From a virus (Duplodnaviria; Heunggongvirae; Uroviricota; Caudoviricetes), in IMG/VR virus record IMGVR_UViG_3300028486_000080, positions 16,199 through 80,198 of that record: 64,000 nt of DNA; one strand, written 5' to 3'. The position numbers were made by a program, and so were the translations under genes. This document shows positions 4,663 through 52,766 of the stretch, piece by piece. The notes beneath the pieces were generated by a model, which saw only the letters and a list, made by a program, of their open reading frames with translations, had not been told where the DNA came from and ran no database searches. The number at the start of each line of letters is the position of its first letter. Position 1 is the first letter of the stretch.

Positions 4663-4709
4663 TTAACCTACAATGTTAACCATACTACTACAAAAGCGCT
4701 TGCTGTCAA
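4663..4709 (-). promoter_or_regulatory. sigma70-like promoter TTGACA-N16-TAGTAT with a downstream TTAA-N9-TTAA
   Basis: Read directly: -35 at 4704-4709, -10 at 4682-4687, TTAA at 4663 and 4676. Confidence 0.55.
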
Positions 4710-10061: not shown

Positions 10062-11666
10062 TCACATTTGATCCGCGAAGAATTTACCGCCGCTCATGTT
10101 GATCAGTGTGCGGTTACCGTTTGGGTATACGATGTCGTGCGTATGTGCCCATGAGCTTGGACCGTTGTTATATCCTAGGTCCATCTTCGATGACGTACCT
10201 ACAACATGCAGCCCGCTCTCGATAGCCGGGGAGTGCGTGTGACCAATCGTGGCTTTCTCGGTCACTCCTACGAACGCGATCTTCGATCCTCGCCGTCCGT
10301 TGGGACCAAAGTGCCCGTGCCACCCGCACTCTACGTTCATAATCTCATAGCTCTCATCACTGAGCAAGAATCTAATCTCATCTGTCTCCGTGACGTATTC
10401 CGTGTTGTCATACACTCCGCACATGTGCTCCATAGCTAGTTCTAGCAACGAAAACTTTGTACCGGCGCGCATCATATCGATCACCGCCAGTTTAAGGCGA
10501 TAGAAGGTTTCGATGTTATCGAAATCCTCCATTCGACATGGGTCAAACTTCAACAACCACTTCTCGATGAAAGCATCGTGGTTGCTATCGACCACAATAT
10601 TTTCTTCCGCGAGTGTGGCTACGAAGCGCGTAAATTTGATGACCTTATTGAAGTCACCCGCGACGCGGTTCTCACCTTTTGCCCAGCGACCCAAACGGTG
10701 GAAGAGGTTCTGAAGTTCATGATAGTTGCCCGCTGTGAAGTCCATTAGGTCATGAAAAACTTGAGTATACGGGCGTAGTTCTTCAACCAAAGTTCGCGTA
10801 GGAACTTTCATTCGTAGCGAAGGGTCAACCGTGTAGCCCCACGTCGCCATCGCCACTTCAGGATCAAGCTGTTCAGCGTGAATATCTCCGTAGATCAACC
10901 CCGCAACACCTTCGTGGGGACGTATCTCTGCATCAGAGATATGATATCCAAGATCGTAGAACTCACCATCGATCTCGTTAGTAGGGGTCAAGTGGCGAAA
11001 CCACACACCATCCTTGGATACCTCGACGATCAATGCGCCATGCATGTGATCAAAGTGTGCGCGGAATCCTGCCTTGGTAGGACTATAGTGCGGATGGGTC
11101 ACGGCGCCTGTGGTCATGATCCACTTAGCCGGGCGATCCTTGTGTGTAGGGACCGTCTCAGCCGCGATCTTGGTGTGCGGAAACACCGCCCACTGACGTT
11201 TGGTATAGGTGCGCAGACCATTGAGCGGCTTGCTCATGGTAGCGGTAAGGTTAAGCTCTGGGGAGTAACGAATCTTGTCGTCGATCTCGATGGGCTCATT
11301 GCTGAGGTACGGGATCACTTCATCCGCAAACTTCCCCTCTTCGAGCTTAGCGTAACGCTGACGGCTGGTGCTAGTCAGGGCACCGATGATTAGCTCGGCG
11401 CCAGTGAACGCCGCGTATGCCTTCAAATTCTCCAGGAAGTCGGCATGAACCGGAGCACCTTTGACGGCACAGGTGAAGATGTAACGCTTGATCTCCCTGC
11501 CACGGATAGGGGCTACGCGAGGCTCCTGCATATGGCGGATCGCCTCTAGGGCAGAACGCTCCTGAGCAAGGCGGTCGAAGAAGGTCGAGCGGGGGATATT
11601 AAGCGCGTCGGCTGCCTTGCGGACAGAGCCGTACTTAGCCAATGCCTTGGAACATTCATCTGACAT
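10062..11666 (-). CDS. N-terminal HTH fused to a calcineurin-like metallophosphoesterase domain
   Basis: SVRKAADALNIPRSTFFDRL HTH; GDIH, HDLMD, SNHD, HGH, GHTHS metal-binding motifs. Confidence 0.7.
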   Translation of the reverse strand: MSDECSKALAKYGSVRKAADALNIPRSTFFDRLAQERSALEAIRHMQEPRVAPIRGREIKRYIFTCAVKGAPVHADFLENLKAYAAFTGAELIIGALTSTSRQRYAKLEEGKFADEVIPYLSNEPIEIDDKIRYSPELNLTATMSKPLNGLRTYTKRQWAVFPHTKIAAETVPTHKDRPAKWIMTTGAVTHPHYSPTKAGFRAHFDHMHGALIVEVSKDGVWFRHLTPTNEIDGEFYDLGYHISDAEIRPHEGVAGLIYGDIHAEQLDPEVAMATWGYTVDPSLRMKVPTRTLVEELRPYTQVFHDLMDFTAGNYHELQNLFHRLGRWAKGENRVAGDFNKVIKFTRFVATLAEENIVVDSNHDAFIEKWLLKFDPCRMEDFDNIETFYRLKLAVIDMMRAGTKFSLLELAMEHMCGVYDNTEYVTETDEIRFLLSDESYEIMNVECGWHGHFGPNGRRGSKIAFVGVTEKATIGHTHSPAIESGLHVVGTSSKMDLGYNNGPSSWAHTHDIVYPNGNRTLINMSGGKFFADQM

Positions 11667-27260: not shown

Positions 27261-27650
27261 TCACTCCGTGGCAGTTTTCTGAAGGTTGGGGTTGCGCATC
27301 GTGTAGCCCCGCCCCCAAACTGTTTCGATGTAGTGCTGCCCGCCCGTGGCGGTTGCGAGCTTCTTGCGGAGCTTGCAGATGAACACGTCGATGATCTTGA
27401 GTTCCGGTTCATCGATCCCACCGTAGAGGTGGTTGAGGAACATTTCCTTCGTGATCGTCTCGGCGGGCTTGAGTGCCAGAAGCGCGAGCATATCGAATTC
27501 TTTGCCCGTCAGGTGAACAGGTGCGTCATTGACCAGCACCGTCTTAAGGTCAAGATTGACCTTGATTTCACCAATGGTGATGGTGGTTTGCTCAGCATCC
27601 TCAGGGGGAGCCGTCTCCTCAGGAGCCACTTTTTCCTTAGCTTTTGTCAT
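27261..27650 (-). CDS. ctrA: CtrA-like winged-helix DNA-binding domain lacking the receiver domain
   Basis: VHLTGKE...[32 protein letters not shown]...[10 protein letters not shown] is the CtrA C-terminal signature; only about 30 aa low-complexity N-terminus; GGAG RBS. Confidence 0.93.
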
Positions 27651-27661
27651 CACTATCTCCA

Positions 27662-27712
27662 TTAATATGTGTTAACGCCTCCACGGTTAACCGATTAACC
27701 GGGAGGCGTCAA
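27662..27712 (-). promoter_or_regulatory. promoter of the ctrA-like gene (TTGACG -35) overlapped by a 35-bp inverted repeat carrying TTAA half-sites
   Basis: ACGCCTCC(A)CGGTTAA-CCGA-TTAACCGGGAGGCGT at 27675-27709; four TTAA in 27662-27698. Confidence 0.6.
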
Positions 27713-28338: not shown

Positions 28339-28361
28339 TTAAGGTTAATCGTTAACCTTAA
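28339..28361. promoter_or_regulatory. palindrome TTAAGGTTAA-TCG-TTAACCTTAA
   Basis: Read directly; four TTAA on a 6/7/6 lattice. Confidence 0.6.
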
Positions 28362-45746: not shown

Positions 45747-45929
45747 CTCCAGCACCTTGTTAACCTTTAGCTAGTTTGTTTCCCTGATCATTTCCACACG
45801 TGGTGGGCGGCGCGCGGCACCCTACCCCCTAACGGTCCCTTTGGGTTCCCATTACCTCCTCGCCTCGCGCCAACGACTCGGAACCATTTGAACGCTTTTG
45901 ATTCAAAAGTCGCTCGAAAACAGTCATTT

Positions 45930-46260
45930 CGCATTTGAATTGATTTTTGAGAAAATAAACGAAAATAGAAAAATAAATGAAAAATGTGTTTAGCACACAA
46001 GCAACACATATGCGCGCCCCCACATACACAACATATTAGGGTTAACAATTAGTGTACACATACACACTCATACACACTCACACATTCACTACATGTTAAC
46101 GTTAATAGATATGGTAAACGATTAACCTTAACAGTGTGTGTATGTGTAACACTGTGTTAACCATATGTGTTAACCTTACTAGATACTAACACTGTGTACC
46201 ATAGTGGCACACATACACACATTAACCCCTCGTATACCATAGCCTACCTTTTTTCTATTC
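45930..46260. repeat. AT-rich non-coding region with A-tracts, ACAC/GTGT repeats and TTAAC motifs
   Basis: GAAAAATAAACGAAAATAGAAAAATAAATG; CACATACACAC copies and an inverted GTGTGTATGTG; no credible ORF. Confidence 0.7.
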
Positions 46261-46293
46261 TTCATTCTTTGTTTACACCTTGAGGCGCATAGT
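46261..46293 (+). promoter_or_regulatory. cassette promoter: degenerate CtrA box plus CACCTTGAGGCG-CATAGT
   Basis: TTCA-N7-TTTA; near-identical to 47163 and 48686. Confidence 0.6.
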
Positions 46294-46364
46294 CATGGGA
46301 TAGCAGGCAAGCACACAGACACAGAGCTTAGCCCTTCCCCCTGCTACCCATAGGAGTCGAACCA

Positions 46365-46511
46365 ATGGAAAAGTTTACTGGCGAGATCGATGGAAAAGCT
46401 CTTGCGCTTTTCATCCAGACAAAGCGACTTGAGCGTGCGCGCCTAGACGCCAAGGCTGACGAAAAGCGCGCCCTAATCCTTGCTTATCTCCGTCACGCAA
46501 CCAAACAGTAA
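46365..46511 (+). CDS. small hypothetical protein (48 aa)
   Basis: AGGAGTCGAA leader; manual translation MEKFTGEIDG... Confidence 0.55.
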   Translation: MEKFTGEIDGKALALFIQTKRLERARLDAKADEKRALILAYLRHATKQ

Positions 46512-48468: not shown

Positions 48469-48505
48469 CGGATTAGTAACCAAGAGTCGAGAAATCGGCT
48501 CTTGG

Positions 48506-48630
48506 TTAATTTTCGATGGCGATTTGTTAACCTTAAAAATTAGGGTTAACGCCAGATTCACAGAAATTAACGACCGTTAACGTTAACGCGCGCTTAACGC
48601 GGCGCTGTCTCAAAATGGGACAGTTGTTAA
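48506..48630. promoter_or_regulatory. cluster of 9 TTAA half-sites including canonical TTAA-CGCGCGC-TTAAC (48583-48598)
   Basis: Counted in sequence. Confidence 0.65.
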
Positions 48631-48685
48631 CCCGAAATTTACCATGATCCAAGTTGGCGATTTTTTCGCTTGGCGGCGATTTTTG

Positions 48686-48718
48686 TTTACCTCTCGTTAA
48701 GACCTTGAGGCGCATAGT
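48686..48718 (+). promoter_or_regulatory. cassette promoter TTTA-N7-TTAA-GACCTTGAGGCG-CATAGT
   Basis: Read directly. Confidence 0.65.
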
Positions 48719-48756
48719 CAGCACATCGAAACGCCAACACCCAGGAGTCGAACCCA

Positions 48757-48947
48757 TGCAAAAGCGCCATTTTGAAGCCGTAGCAAAGGCAATCAAAGCC
48801 TGCAACATCAGCGAAAACGCTCGTTGCAGTGTTGTGCTCGCTCTGGCGAACGAGTTTGCCGAGCACAACGAAAAATTTCAGGAAATCAGATTCATGCTGG
48901 CATGTGGTTGCTCGCATGATGACGTTGCGCTGATGTTGCGCGCCTAA
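48757..48947 (+). CDS. small hypothetical protein
   Basis: AGGAGTCGAA leader; MQKRHFEAVA pattern. Confidence 0.65.
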
Positions 48948-48968
48948 TCGAGAACGAGGAGTCGAGCC

Positions 48969-50225
48969 ATGACAGCGGCAGGTTACATAATCGGCGGCAT
49001 GTTCCTAATCGGCGCTGTGATCCACGTCGATAAGCTGCAAACCAAGCTCGACTCCTCTATGTGCATGACGCGCGCATGCCTTGAGCTTGTCAGCGTCGAA
49101 AAGTCAGTAAGAGAACGCAACGCGGCAAAAGCCGCTCAAATAGAGGTGATGCATGCACTCGAACGCTAAAGAGATCGTGACCATTGTCGAGACAACGAAA
49201 ATCGAGTCCGCAGAAGACTTGGCGGCATACTTTGCCCGCGGCGGAGTCGTGCACAAATGCGCGATTGGCGAGCGCTCGATTGCCCCAGGTGAGGCGCCCG
49301 TGCTCGATGAGGAATTCGATACGGAATGAAAATCTGGCACGTGATAATTGCGGGGGTGCTTTTGTGCGCCCTCGCTGGATTCTCGACTCACAACTGGCGC
49401 CGCAACATCTGCGACGTTGATTGCAGAGTCCAATTCGAGGAGTCGCTTAGGTGATAGTCACCTCTAAGCACGTGCGCCCTAATCCGTACAGGGCGCGCGA
49501 ATTCGTCGGCTTTGATGCGTCGGGCAACGTCTGGCGCATCTATCACAATGAGCGGCGCCGCTCGCATGCCGAGACGTGGCGAGTCGAGAAAATAATGGGC
49601 GGCACGTCGTTTTGTTCACGCAATCTTAGCGAAATCAGCGATAGGCTAGCCAATACCGCATAACCGAGGAGTCGAACATGCTTGACCTAATCGCCAACTG
49701 GCAAGATTCGCCCATGCTGCTAGCCGGGGCAATGCTCTTTTCTTTTTGGGTGACCGCTTCTGTGGTCCGCTAAATAGGAGTCGAACAATGAAGCCTGGAA
49801 CAAGAATCGAAGTCGTCTCGCCGCGTCTGCATTGCGCCGGGCAATTCGGAATCATCGTCGCCGCGTGCTCTAGTCATGCCGACGTGCTGCTTGACGATGG
49901 CGGCACCCTCAACGGGATTCACGTCTCGCACCTCAGGGAAAGCGATTATTTCGCTTGGTAGTAGTTTGTTAAGACGTGCCGGGATATTCTCGGCACGTCA
50001 ACACATGAGGAGTCGAACATGTCTAAGCTAGTTCAAGTTTTTGGCGACTACGGATATGACAGCGAGCAACTATTGCTCGGTGAAACGTCCCTTGAAGATG
50101 CCGAGCGCTTTATCAAGCGCTACACCCGCGGGGGTGACTTCGGAGGCTATAGCGTCATTGAGGCAATATCGTTTGCCGATGATGGCGAGGCAATCGTGCG
50201 CTTCAAAGTCTCGATTGACGACTAA
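48969..50225 (+). CDS. run of seven tiny genes: 48969-49169, 49153-49329, 49326-49454, 49451-49663, 49678-49773, 49788-49961, 50019-50225
   Basis: Coupled ORFs, most preceded by GGAGTCG(A); three have hydrophobic helices. Confidence 0.55.
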
Positions 50226-50282
50226 CAGGTAAGGTGCCCGGTGTAACAGCCGGGCATCATTGTGGCTTGTTTTTTGGTATGG

Positions 50283-50534
50283 TTAATTTCGCTACGTGAT
50301 TCTGTTAACCTTAATGTGAACACCTATCAGCGTTAACCTTAATCGTTAACCTTAACGTGAACACCTATCAGCGTTAACCTTAATTCTTAACCTTAATAGT
50401 CAGCTTTGTTAACCTTAATTCTTAACGTTAATGCGCGATTCATGGTAAATCTGGCGTTAACGTTAATTGTTAACCTTAACGGCTGTTAACCTTAACGATT
50501 ATGGTTAACGTAGTATGGTTAACGAGCCGTTAAC
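50283..50534. repeat. dense TTAAC array: 24 TTAA, 8x TTAACCTTAA, one exact 28-bp direct repeat, one canonical CtrA box at 50519-50534
   Basis: Counted in sequence; non-coding. Confidence 0.9.
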
Positions 50535-50555
50535 CTAAATGAAAATTAGTGTTAG

Positions 50556-50675
50556 GAAAACCTCACGAGCCCAAAGCCAGATCGCGATTCGAAAAGCTCG
50601 CGAGCCCATGGGTGCTCCCGAGTGTGAAAAAGCTCACGAGCCCATGGACAGATTCGATTCTGGAAAAGCCTCAGG
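50556..50675. repeat. iteron-like repeats GAAAA(G/C)CTC(A/G)CGAGCCCA at 35-nt period
   Basis: Copies at 50556, 50591, 50626 and a degenerate copy at 50663. Confidence 0.75.
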
Positions 50676-51164
50676 TGGTCGATTATGCTTGCGTAGATTG
50701 TCGATGGCTGGAATCACTCTCAGGTTCCACGGTACGTGAAGCCCACACCGATCTTTACCTTGCAACGGCTCGATATGGTCAACATGGTGAGCGACACCCG
50801 TCTCTTGTTCCTTGACTCTCGCCTCCAGATACTTGGCGGCAATCTCGTCCACCATGGCGTCGTTCTCAGAGCACCATACAGGAAAAGCGTTAATAAATCG
50901 TGCACGCTTCTTAGCGTTGCGCGCTCGTGATCGCCCGATATTTTTTCGGTAGTAATCTCTGTTGTTGTCCCGGCGTCTCTCTCGATGCGTGAGGGCATAA
51001 AGGCGCCCGCGCGCTAGGTAGCGCTCTCGATTTTTCTTCTGCCACGCCTTGGTGCGTTCATTGCGGCATGGCTTGCATTCCCCGGCGAGTCCGTCACGGT
51101 ATCGCGGGTCTTTGCAGTAGTCTGTTAACTCTTTTTCCTCTGAGCACTTCGAACAGCGTTTCAT
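50634..51164 (-). CDS. HNH endonuclease with N-terminal Zn-finger
   Basis: KRCSKC...ECKPC; HHVDHIEPLQG..CGLHVPWNLRVI...NLRKHN; own promoter TTGACA-N17-TACACT at 51171-51199. Confidence 0.9.
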   Translation of the reverse strand: MKRCSKCSEEKELTDYCKDPRYRDGLAGECKPCRNERTKAWQKKNRERYLARGRLYALTHRERRRDNNRDYYRKNIGRSRARNAKKRARFINAFPVWCSENDAMVDEIAAKYLEARVKEQETGVAHHVDHIEPLQGKDRCGLHVPWNLRVIPAIDNLRKHNRPPEAFPESNLSMGS

Positions 51165-51298
51165 GAACGCAGTGTATCAATATTAACCTTAAATGTCAAC
51201 TGTGATATATTTGTTGTGATAATATTGTCACAGATGCTCGTTGACTTAAAAGTCAATTTAAGATTCGGACAACCTCCCCCTTAGTTAAAATTTCTGGC

Positions 51299-51384
51299 GG
51301 GTCCACATACCCCCCTAGGAAAAAATCCGGCAATGGGTCCACCCGCCCTATCTCTAATTTTGGGGAAGGGTCCACCCGCCCTAT
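51299..51384. repeat. three GGGTCCAC repeats, two extended to GGGTCCACCCGCCCTAT
   Basis: Copies at 51299, 51335, 51368. Confidence 0.7.
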
Positions 51385-51394
51385 TCTCAAATAG

Positions 51395-51628
51395 TTAACG
51401 GCTCCCCTCGATCTTTTCCATGAGTGCCCTCAGCATCGCTTCATAGGGGAAGTTGCCCACCTTTTCCACCCGGCGAAAAGTGCTAAGGCTCATACCCAGC
51501 GCCTCAGCGGCAGCCGGTTGACTCAAATTGAGGCGGGTCCGCCAATCCTTAACATCGATACCGAGGGTCGATGCGAATTGGGGCACCAGATCGCCATAGT
51601 CGCCCGTACGGGTCACATCGTTGGTCAT
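51395..51628 (-). CDS. XRE-family HTH regulator
   Basis: VKDWRTRLNLSQPAAAEALGMSLSTFRRVE. Confidence 0.75.
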   Translation of the reverse strand: MTNDVTRTGDYGDLVPQFASTLGIDVKDWRTRLNLSQPAAAEALGMSLSTFRRVEKVGNFPYEAMLRALMEKIEGSR

Positions 51629-51631
51629 GGA

Positions 51632-51784
51632 GTCAAAACTGTTCAAATTGGACAGGGGGGTAGTCAAATTGACTGTAGTCAATTTGAAGGGGTAGTCAAA
51701 TTGGATACCCCTCAAAACTGTTCAAATTGAACAGTTTTGCGCCTGTTAACGTTAATCTTTAAGCCTAATGTGTTCAAATTGACT
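51632..51784. promoter_or_regulatory. six TCAA(A/T)TTG pseudo-palindromes upstream of the XRE gene, putative operators
   Basis: Includes AAAACTGTTCAA-A-TTGAACAGTTTT at about 51715-51739. Confidence 0.6.
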
Positions 51785-52283
51785 ACCCCCCGACGCTCGA
51801 CGGGCGATTTGTGACCATTTTCGGGGCGTTTGTGTCCACTGAATGGTCACACGACTTCCGAGGGGTGTAGGGCGGCAAAAACCCAGCATTTCTCGGCTCT
51901 TGATGGCTTCTTTACCTTACTATTCTTACTTAATATAACTATATGATTAATGTAACCAGTTTTGGGAAGTCCTTAGCCCATTGCAAACGAATCTTAAGCA
52001 TAAAAGTTAACGTTAACGTTCGTGCTGTTTGCGCCCATCCGTGCTCCAGTGTGCTGCTGTAGCCCGTGATATGCCTTTTGAGGAGTCACAATAGACCTGT
52101 AGTTTCTTTCGACGTAAGCCTTTGATATCGCCCAATGTTTTTGTGCCCATTTTTCGGGGGCAATGGACACACTCCCGACACAAGAGTATTGCAATTAACG
52201 ATAATATCCTGTAGTATCTCAGAGTCGAAAGGCGTGAAACGCCCAACGATCAACGATCAACCCTCAACTCTCAGGACACCACC

Positions 52284-52766
52284 ATGGGTCTCTTAACTCT
52301 CGACGTGCACCTCGAATTGGATACCGAAAGCCCCGAGGCTATGATGCTTCTAGCCATAAAACACCGGCTAGGTCTCTCCGACGTTGACGCGATCAAGTAT
52401 GCCCTTCACCACCACCAATTGAAGCACAATCGCGCCAAGGGTACCCTACCCCGTAAGGCTGATCAGATGCGCAAAGTCCGCGCTATCCAGCAATGGCAAG
52501 CGGTCCATGCCGCCTATGGGAAGCTGGCAACATGCCCTCACATCTTTGCCGTTACGGTATGGGATTACGGTCCCGACAACAAAACCGTCGAAGTCACCGT
52601 GAAATTCCCATGGGTCAACCCTAATGATTGGACCACGTGGCGGGTCGATACTGACAAGGTGCACGATGCCAAAGGCGTGGCCATTTACTTCGCTGCCCAG
52701 TCCCTAGGATTGAACGTCGAAGACAAATATGCAACAGAGCCTATCCGTTGCGTTCAGGTTAATTAA
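52284..52766 (+). CDS. hypothetical protein
   Basis: 160 aa, AGGA RBS. Confidence 0.6.
   Translation: MGLLTLDVHLELDTESPEAMMLLAIKHRLGLSDVDAIKYALHHHQLKHNRAKGTLPRKADQMRKVRAIQQWQAVHAAYGKLATCPHIFAVTVWDYGPDNKTVEVTVKFPWVNPNDWTTWRVDTDKVHDAKGVAIYFAAQSLGLNVEDKYATEPIRCVQVN

Follow-up and report, generated by a model that had tools for sequence, protein, structure and literature searches.

A 252-bp stretch of phage DNA (positions 50283-50534), packed with 24 TTAA words and lying between two converging genes, raises the question of which protein occupies it and what that occupancy controls. The window analysed here comprises 64,000 nucleotides, positions 16199-80198 of an IMG/VR phage genome that derives from sludge metagenomes, has a length of 165,361 bp and a GC content of 53%, and was assembled as a circle closed by an overlap of just 22 bp; coordinates below are those of the window unless the genome is named. 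A sequence-only reading had seen CtrA half-sites in this stretch and had suggested a site for the truncated CtrA encoded by the phage, a decoy for host CtrA, or an origin. Here, we describe the anatomy of the array, its recurrence in many phages and its polarity towards a neighbouring block of iterons, and we infer from these sequence features that the array and the iterons may together form a CtrA-occupied switch on cis-acting repeats, most likely a replication or maintenance origin, a reading to which we give not quite an even chance.

Anatomy and integrity of the array

The array and its immediate surroundings contain the following features:

50019-50225, + strand: 68-aa ORF that ends the rightward arm; ribosome site GAGGAG, no match to any family
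50224-50272, + strand: hairpin and U-run (-24.5 kcal/mol, z -3.85), directly before the array
50277-50286, - strand: upstream edge motif of the array, ATGGTTAA, which is the CtrA half-site 8-mer TTAACCAT in reverse
50304-50539, + strand: core array of 10-mers and lone GTTAAC half-sites, with a GC content of 36% against 53.6% in the window
50316-50343 and 50357-50384, + strand: exact 28-bp duplication within a 41-bp unit present 2.3 times
50333-50355, 50374-50396, 50409-50431 and 50457-50479, + strand: 23-bp doublets (10-mer, N3, 10-mer)
50519-50534, + strand: canonical TTAA-N7-TTAA(C) CtrA box, the sole one in the array
50555-50680, + strand: iterons, GAAAA[G/C]CTC[A/G]CGAGCC(CATGG), three good copies and one degenerate, 35-36 bp apart
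50634-51164, - strand: HNH / endonuclease VII-like gene, 176 aa (phrog_1035, 3e-27), with its 3' end in the iterons
51171-51199, - strand: HNH-gene promoter of sigma-70-like type, TTGACA-17-TACACT, whose spacer contains a TTAAGGTTAA 10-mer (51183-51192)
51395-51715, - strand: XRE-type HTH protein, 106 aa, a candidate binder of the nearby repeats

The 24 TTAA words in 252 bp compare with a window average of 0.9 per 252 bp and a genome-wide mean of 0.76 per 250 bp. The next densest stretches hold 11 per 252 bp in the window and 13 genome-wide, and the maximum in 40 Markov-1 control sequences of 64 kb each, which retained the dinucleotide composition of the window, was 5 per 252 bp. The repeated unit is the 10-mer (G)TTAAC[C/G]TTAA(C) rather than TTAA alone: ten exact copies are present, TTAACCTTAA eight times and TTAACGTTAA twice, and every one of the eight copies of the asymmetric TTAACCTTAA stands on the + strand. 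Both the TTAA density and this one-way orientation are far above chance. The array additionally holds a 10-mer with one mismatch at 50530 and three lone GTTAAC words, each with ATG in front. Linkers vary between copies, and the 10-mers are intact in every copy. At a GC fraction of 0.348 the array is the second-lowest 250-bp window of the genome, and the TTAA words alone account for this AT richness.

Start-to-start distances between TTAA words are dominated by 6 bp (ten times) and 13 bp (nine times), which are the N2 and N9 spacings that the sequence-only reading had reported. The doublets place TTAA at 0/6/13/19, their four pairs of 10-mers having an offset of exactly 13 bp, and the remaining 10-mer offsets in the array are 16, 22, 28, 28 and 35 bp. 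Canonical operator spacing, with half-sites 11 bp apart from centre to centre, is found in only one pair among the 24 TTAA. The earlier counts of TTAA words and of the two 10-mers, the 28-bp duplication and the single N7 pair were all reproduced.

The array is unlikely to be an assembly artefact, since Logan contigs from two runs bridge it without any difference (48500-52500 in X1 and 48500-52199 in X2) and since exact repeats inside it reach at most 28 bp, less than the k-mer length of these assemblies, which we take to be k=31. X1 and X2 are two sludge-metagenome runs of one study, and either may be the source sample. In X2, one contig ends at 52199 and the next begins at 52171.

A convergent gap with no gene start

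The array occupies a convergence point beside iterons, as had been proposed: the 68-aa ORF ends at 50225, the HNH gene ends at 50634 and the iterons begin at 50555, so both flanking genes end in the gap, which has no annotated start. The hairpin at 50224-50272 is likely the intrinsic terminator of the rightward arm; a simple terminator scan left it unflagged, and its z-score comes from separate folding. No -35 element, TTGACA included, was found in the array, and a promoter scan gave one weak promoter-like site. An Rfam search of the region returned only sub-threshold eukaryotic miRNA noise. We rejected an ORF at 50539-50739 (+ strand) as a real gene, as it lacks a ribosome site and is not conserved in the second module described below. 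With no gene start beside the array, its occupancy cannot work as a classical promoter switch.

Standard marks of an origin were sought in the same region. DnaA boxes (with at most one mismatch) and the IHF consensus are absent from 49900-51300, and the genes near the array, which encode the HNH nuclease, the XRE protein and the 68-aa ORF, include no initiator-like gene. A GC-skew check had been suggested for the origin idea and does not support it: the skew changes from + to - at the array, a terminus-like polarity fully explained by convergent transcription, and the cumulative skew has no minimum there.

Recurrence in other phages and a second spacing lattice

In similarity searches with the region and in BLAST searches with the array alone, every match came from a phage of Caulobacter, Brevundimonas, Sphingobium, Erythrobacter or Sphingomonas and none from a plasmid; array look-alikes are confined to phages of Caulobacterales and Sphingomonadales. 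A pattern scan found 10-mer doublets in 107 viral contigs, about 40 of which, with low-GC microsatellites set aside, carry arrays of 6-26 copies. Perfect 10-mer doublets occur in only 3 of 401 alphaproteobacterial genomes, which makes such arrays a phage feature. Bacterial doublet matches elsewhere are mostly (TTAAGG)n microsatellites in Bacteroidota and others, and were set aside as irrelevant.

Across distinct sequences, the offsets between consecutive 10-mers pile up at 13 bp (25), 17 bp (35) and 27 bp (33), while the whole-unit, in-phase offsets of 10-11 and 21 bp are almost empty; the search pattern demanded one offset of 11-18 bp, so that 13 and 17 stand out within the range searched and 27 lies outside it. 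The 17- and 27-bp offsets bring an inner pair of TTAA words to distances of 11 and 21 bp, the canonical CtrA phasing, whereas the 13-bp offset yields no 11-bp TTAA pair. Both direct and inverted 10-mers are found at the 13-bp offset, and it is the TTAA lattice that is conserved. With 25 distinct 13-bp doublets in 17 phage loci, this doublet is a real and recurrent second arrangement, distinct from the N7 boxes as the sequence-only reading had held, and the window is rich in it: beyond the array, the N9 geometry that had been listed at 4663, 28339/28345 and 46157 is present there, and also at 48533, 51746 and 51994.

The further claim that this grammar would suit the receiver-less CtrA of the phage is not supported by the comparison with other genomes. 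No Trans_reg_C ORF was found in BL64 or in four other phage genomes, 98-100% complete, that carry 13-bp doublets, and two Rhizobiaceae MAGs have a 13-bp doublet upstream of a predicted secreted-protein gene, whose product we read as a putative outer-membrane protein. The reader of the doublets is therefore expected to be common to the hosts and would most simply be host CtrA.

Coupling of the array to iterons

The iteron block begins 20 bp past the array and runs, in its last copies, into the 3' end of the HNH gene. At 50555-50669, Tandem Repeats Finder detected 3.2 copies of a 36-bp unit. Each iteron has a near-palindromic core, GCTCNCGAGC, and the repeat word is GAAAAGCTCACGAGCC. The block thus contains at least three regularly spaced direct repeats, as iteron origins do. 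Three GANTC sites fall within it; a 475-bp stretch contains five such sites, compared with a genome-wide density of 2.9 per kb.

This pairing of array and repeats recurs. When arrays were oriented to read TTAACCTTAA and the 350 bp downstream was scored, at least three copies of another 11-mer were found downstream of 27 of 48 arrays, loci that are not independent of one another; the corresponding counts were 11 of 48 upstream and 2 of 66 in control windows. The iterons found beside arrays belong to at least nine unrelated sequence families. The phage described here also conforms to the order of array, iterons and then a gene that reads towards them and so presents its 3' end.

Elsewhere in the genome, the iteron core occurs only at 88966-89035, where it adjoins the second-densest TTAA cluster (13 TTAA, two canonical boxes and one 10-mer). 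This second module is a weaker copy of the array element. It likewise adjoins the 3' end of a leftward HNH gene, whose product is 42% identical to the first HNH protein and which takes the equivalent position. The modules share one orientation and are separated by 22 kb, a stretch that appears, from its negative GC skew and from the promoters listed in the sequence-only reading, to be the leftward arm of small genes. The terL gene lies at 94916-96514 of the genome, 28 kb from the array and 5 kb past the second module, on the opposite strand.

Searches for close relatives of the locus had little yield. The HNH protein led only to 34%-identical genes, all of them without arrays; a scan of viral contigs with the iteron pattern gave 5 chance matches in coding DNA; and a metagenome scan for paired iteron cores gave at least 120 unrelated matches, none with 10-mers or flank similarity.

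A probable CtrA-type reader

The make-up of the array is that of CtrA half-sites, as first proposed: it consists of TTAAC half-sites with flanking ATGGTTAAC 8-mers, ATGGTTAAC being the half-site word TTAACCAT reversed, and it includes one canonical box. TTAACCTTAA itself, which agrees with the half-site word TTAACCAT in 7 of 8 positions, comprises two TTAA(C) half-sites 6 bp apart. Besides the copy of ATGGTTAA at the upstream edge of the array there are further copies at 50501 and 50515, and the arrays of other phages have the same edge motif.

Genome-wide, TTAAC[C/G]TTAA is found 42 times on the + strand and 24 times reversed, the 13 palindromic TTAACGTTAA being counted in both, and dispersed 10-mers often take the form TTGACA-N16-17-TTAAGGTTAA or lie within promoter spacers. 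The canonical TTAA-N7-TTAA boxes, 12 in number, all fall within 64.8-91.1 kb of the genome (16% of 165 kb), the type of skewed placement by which CtrA-cluster phages were defined in the literature (PMC9437464). As in the CtrA-box clusters of phages, the TTAA words of the array are gathered in one intergenic region at a density far above that of the genome.

The window also encodes a candidate second reader and a protein with a bearing on the DNA-entry reading below:

27261-27662, - strand: phage CtrA DNA-binding domain without a receiver, 133 aa, candidate second reader of the array
10062-11666: T5 A1-like DNA transfer protein (phrog_1745, 1.6e-137)

The 133-aa protein aligns with positions 124-224 of the NF045991 CtrA model, the DNA-binding half alone, at 163.8 bits, the next family scoring 67 bits. 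Together with the confinement of array look-alikes to phages of Caulobacterales and Sphingomonadales, this CtrA-derived domain indirectly suggests that the host of this uncultured phage may be an alphaproteobacterium with CtrA.

The identity of the half-sites, the 8-mers at the edges, the skew of the canonical boxes and the published shift of a probe from phage Delta, together with the restriction of look-alikes to phages of CtrA-bearing hosts, make it very probable that a CtrA-type protein would bind the array. Against this reading stand the single canonical N7 pair and the still putative binding of full-length CtrA dimers to 13-bp doublets.

Comparison with known systems

The origin of the Caulobacter chromosome, Cori, reportedly has five CtrA boxes over its unwinding and DnaA region. 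The array resembles it in placing several CtrA sites in an AT-rich stretch beside initiator-type repeats, with GANTC sites present, but Cori has canonical N7 boxes and DnaA boxes, whereas the array has non-canonical spacing and neither DnaA nor IHF boxes.

Close architectural parallels are found in leader regions of the phiCbK and Lacusarx types (BL64, CcrSC, CcrBL9, Lacusarx and XM05), which have the same succession of array, iterons and 3' end of a nuclease-type gene, often with the module doubled (XM05 and Lacusarx have a main module and a small second one), and whose TerL is about 33% identical to that of this phage. In these genomes and in numerous contigs, the iterons are followed by terL, which reads towards them, and the module is found 0.1-1.4 kb past the terL 3' end in half of the 30 array loci (15) as well as in BL64, XM05 and Lacusarx. 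The array-iteron region opens a long terminal repeat in the BL64/Lacusarx-type clade, and an unannotated terL frame of BL64 seems to extend across the boundary of this repeat. Here, by contrast, the gene beside the iterons is HNH/endonuclease VII-like, terL is 28 kb off and the two modules are 22 kb apart. We therefore reject linkage to terL as a universal rule, true as it is in one large clade, since it fails here, in the Delta type and in several others. The repeat nearest terL in the relatives is of the GGGTCCC type, a word absent from this genome, as are all terminus-linked GGGWCCC repeats of the relatives. A GGWCC cluster at 9.1-10.9 kb of the genome was considered as an end marker and proved to be a collagen-like coding repeat.

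Phage Delta is the type case of a CtrA-box cluster in alphaproteobacterial phages (Mascolo 2022, PMC9437464), and CtrA~P shifts Delta DNA in vitro by EMSA (PMC9437464). Three exact 10-mers lie in the 81 bp upstream of DELTA_120, a 68-aa ORF that begins at the edge of the Delta array and spans the neighbouring repeats; from its coordinates, we read this 81-bp stretch as the published EMSA probe. The two arrays have in common dense TTAA half-sites in one non-coding region, the 10-mers TTAACCTTAA, TTAAGGTTAA and TTAACGTTAA, phage-specific repeats alongside, the host range of their look-alikes and the gathering of all canonical boxes in one genome sector. They differ in that the 1312-bp gap of Delta contains 30 TTAA, of which 12 form N7 pairs, and lies between divergent modules with promoters, whereas the array described here has 24 TTAA in 252 bp, one N7 pair, mainly 13-bp doublets and a convergent gap.

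A further parallel is the iss region of T5, where DnaA boxes are paired 3 bp apart in a repeat-rich non-coding leader (Davison, bioRxiv 10.1101/866236). The 3-bp spacing of boxes for a host factor in repeat-rich non-coding DNA is shared, and an A1-like protein is encoded here. In T5, however, the boxes are DnaA boxes inside inverted repeats of the left terminal repeat, while the boxes of the array are directly oriented CtrA half-sites, and phages of this group are not known to enter the cell in two steps.

What the array may control

We propose that the array is a landing pad for CtrA-type DNA-binding domains, to be occupied by host CtrA~P, with the receiver-less CtrA domain of the phage as a probable additional occupant. 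The pad would be the control half of a two-part cis element whose other half, the phage-specific iterons, would be read by a phage protein, and its occupancy would gate events at the iterons. The likeliest such event would be the start of DNA replication, of the phage or of an episome, with CtrA keeping the AT-rich array from opening as at the Caulobacter chromosomal origin. The lack of a gene start beside the array, coupled with its pairing with phage-specific repeats, favours the gating of a DNA transaction in cis, and we lean slightly towards some transaction of this kind over promoter control. That the gated process would be replication or maintenance is the best single guess, drawn by analogy with Cori, but it is less likely than not.

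The origin idea fits the array-plus-iteron architecture. Several observations speak against it: DnaA and IHF boxes, a nearby initiator gene and an origin-type skew are all missing; the element is present twice, beside HNH paralogues, so that the iterons could belong to a nuclease cassette; and in relatives the module follows terL at the start of the terminal repeat, a position that terminus, packaging and entry functions would fit equally well. Nor was a close relative found in which the conservation of this particular array could be checked.

A wider version of the proposal, which we regard as doubtful, would make the element a cell-cycle-gated origin common to the phiCbK, Lacusarx and Delta types and to this phage. 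CtrA would license or block its firing, the receiver-less domain would set the switch independently of host CtrA phosphorylation and proteolysis, and the 23-bp doublet would represent a distinct binding mode with four half-sites on four helix faces.

An alternative is that the array is a transcription hub, giving rise to an unannotated transcript that runs into the iterons as reported for DELTA_120, or a roadblock between the converging arms. CtrA represses the Delta promoter beside the homologous array (PMC9437464), and the Delta ORF that crosses the iterons from the array edge has a positional counterpart here in the ORF at 50539-50739, directly after the array. Consistent with a transcriptional role, the second TTAA cluster (L252 2650-2935) lies upstream of a - strand gene, and 10-mers stand on or beside TTGACA promoters throughout the genome. 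The counterpart ORF, however, has no ribosome site, is antisense to the end of the HNH gene and is conserved in the second module solely within the iterons. The array has no -35 element and one weak promoter-like site, its twelve or more sites exceed the need of a single promoter, and the fixed iteron partner would remain unexplained. We consider this explanation unlikely.

It is less likely still that the array belongs to a terminal-repeat leader, serving terminase recognition and end formation, or else DNA entry as an analogue of T5 iss in which CtrA takes the place of DnaA boxes. The position of the module just past terL in half of the 30 array loci, and in BL64, XM05 and Lacusarx, suggests such a role, as do the encoded A1-like transfer protein and the 3-bp pairing shared with T5 iss. 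Both modules adjoin genes for HNH nucleases, a class known to assist terminases, and two same-sense modules 22 kb apart could mark the boundaries of a repeat. In this genome, though, terL is encoded on the other strand, at a distance of 28 kb from the array and of 5 kb from the second module; the relatives' terL-nearest GGGTCCC-type repeat is missing; and the assembly is circular with its 22-bp overlap and so does not show the genome ends. Delta-type phages, moreover, are circularly permuted (PMC9437464).

We find it improbable, to a somewhat greater degree, that the array is a site dedicated to the receiver-less CtrA of the phage, its lattice tuned for monomers, or a decoy that titrates CtrA of the host. 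The phage does encode a genuine CtrA DNA-binding domain that lacks a receiver, the array has only one N7 pair, and its 6-7-bp steps set four TTAA words on four sides of the helix, which monomers could tolerate better than dimers would; replication of the phage DNA would also multiply the sites. Yet 13-bp doublets are common in complete phages without Trans_reg_C and occur in host promoters as well, and a decoy would need neither an iteron partner nor fixed polarity nor a single location. Finally, a neutral origin by slippage or duplication of a dispersed motif beside a mobile HNH homing-endonuclease cassette, to which the 41-bp unit present 2.3 times with its exact 28-bp duplication, the resemblance of the HNH paralogues and their shared downstream repeats to a duplicated cassette, and the failure to find relatives that would reveal purifying selection might point, is very improbable, given that the same word has the same polarity to iterons in at least nine phage lineages without an HNH gene nearby, that offsets are not random but cluster at 13, 17 and 27 bp, and that the 10-mer is intact in all copies while the linkers differ.

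Implications

The array is a member of a class already described, the CtrA-box clusters of phages that infect Alphaproteobacteria (Mascolo 2022). So far, the only role assigned to these clusters has been that of promoter operators through which a phage senses the host cell cycle ('lytic deferment'); the Mascolo study, too, treats the sites in this way, without describing the 10-mer as a unit, the lattice of offsets or the coupling to iterons (PMC9437464). What is new here is the 10-mer unit with its preferred offsets of 13, 17 and 27 bp, the iteron coupling of fixed polarity, the promoter-less convergent position and the second module. The densest cluster of this genome has no promoter to control, and the 13-bp doublet would be read without any phage-encoded CtrA. 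Our findings sharpen a known category rather than open a new one, and they can be tested in cultured relatives.

Phages of the phiCbK type persist as replicating episomes (pseudolysogens) whose origin is unknown (PMC12195562). Regarded as a CtrA-occupied switch on iterons, the element is a clonable candidate for the replication start of these episomal phages and a testable candidate for what CtrA switches on phage DNA. Should it instead serve end formation or DNA entry, that role would still be new for this group of phages.

Results

We found that the first module, in which a TTAA half-site array (50283-50534), iterons (50555-50680) and an HNH/EndoVII-like gene (50634-51164, minus strand) lie together, has a counterpart elsewhere in the same phage genome:

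L252:2650-3582 (genome 88649-89581), same sense as the first module, about 8.5 kb past the window's end: second module

The two modules are 22 kb apart in equal orientation, and the second comprises a cluster of 13 TTAA that includes two canonical N7 boxes (TTAA-N7-TTAA), three iterons with a core identical to that of the first module, and an HNH/EndoVII-like ORF whose product shares 42% identity with that of 50634-51164. Near the first module, two successive contigs from sludge-metagenome run X2 meet at window 52171-52199, sharing 29 bp, whereas the contig from run X1, of the same study, is continuous there.

Half-site units of the array type, TTAAC[C/G]TTAA (10-mers), also occur singly or as doublets elsewhere in the window:

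Window 28339-28361: inverted 23-bp doublet, TTAAGGTTAA-tcg-TTAACCTTAA, in the loop of the inverted repeat cttcttccccc ... gggggaagaag
Window 10062-11666, minus strand: 534-aa protein with a match (1.6e-137) to phrog_1745, the 'DNA transfer protein' family of T5 A1 type

The inverted doublet has a leftward gene on either side and the phage CtrA-domain gene close by. At window 45924-46480, a 431-bp ORF-free gap contains the genome's lowest-GC 250-bp window, and there an inverted CA-rich/GT-rich repeat (acacatacacac ... gtgtgtatgtgt) frames TTAACGTTAA and TTAACCTTAA, followed by GTTAAC sites 13 bp apart at 46156/46169; the rightward arm may have its head here. One 10-mer lies 14 bp upstream of the start of the DNA transfer protein gene. 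This is a hint that DNA of phages in this group may enter the cell in two steps, as in T5.

Outside the window, at genome 9.1-10.9 kb, long collagen-like Gly-X-Y coding repeats carry a GGWCC every 9-18 bp and presumably belong to a tail-fibre gene. GGGWCCC is absent from the whole 165-kb genome, where base composition predicts about 28 occurrences, and this looks like avoidance of a SanDI/PpuMI-type restriction site.

In Caulobacter phage BL64 (PV745554), we located a TerL-like frame:

L010:3359-3944 and L253, extreme left end: 194-aa frame, 45-54% identical to TerL C-termini

Since the record also leaves about 2.7 kb without annotation from terS to the first repeat gene, the unannotated terL seems to straddle the terminal-repeat boundary.

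Discussion

Doublets of two 10-mers starting 13 bp apart are also found in Rhizobiaceae MAGs:

L129:4481-4503 and L194:1118-1140: perfect 13-bp doublet, then TTAACCAT

Both lie upstream of a predicted secreted-protein gene, which we take to encode a putative outer-membrane protein, and would represent the non-canonical doublet in use on a host chromosome.
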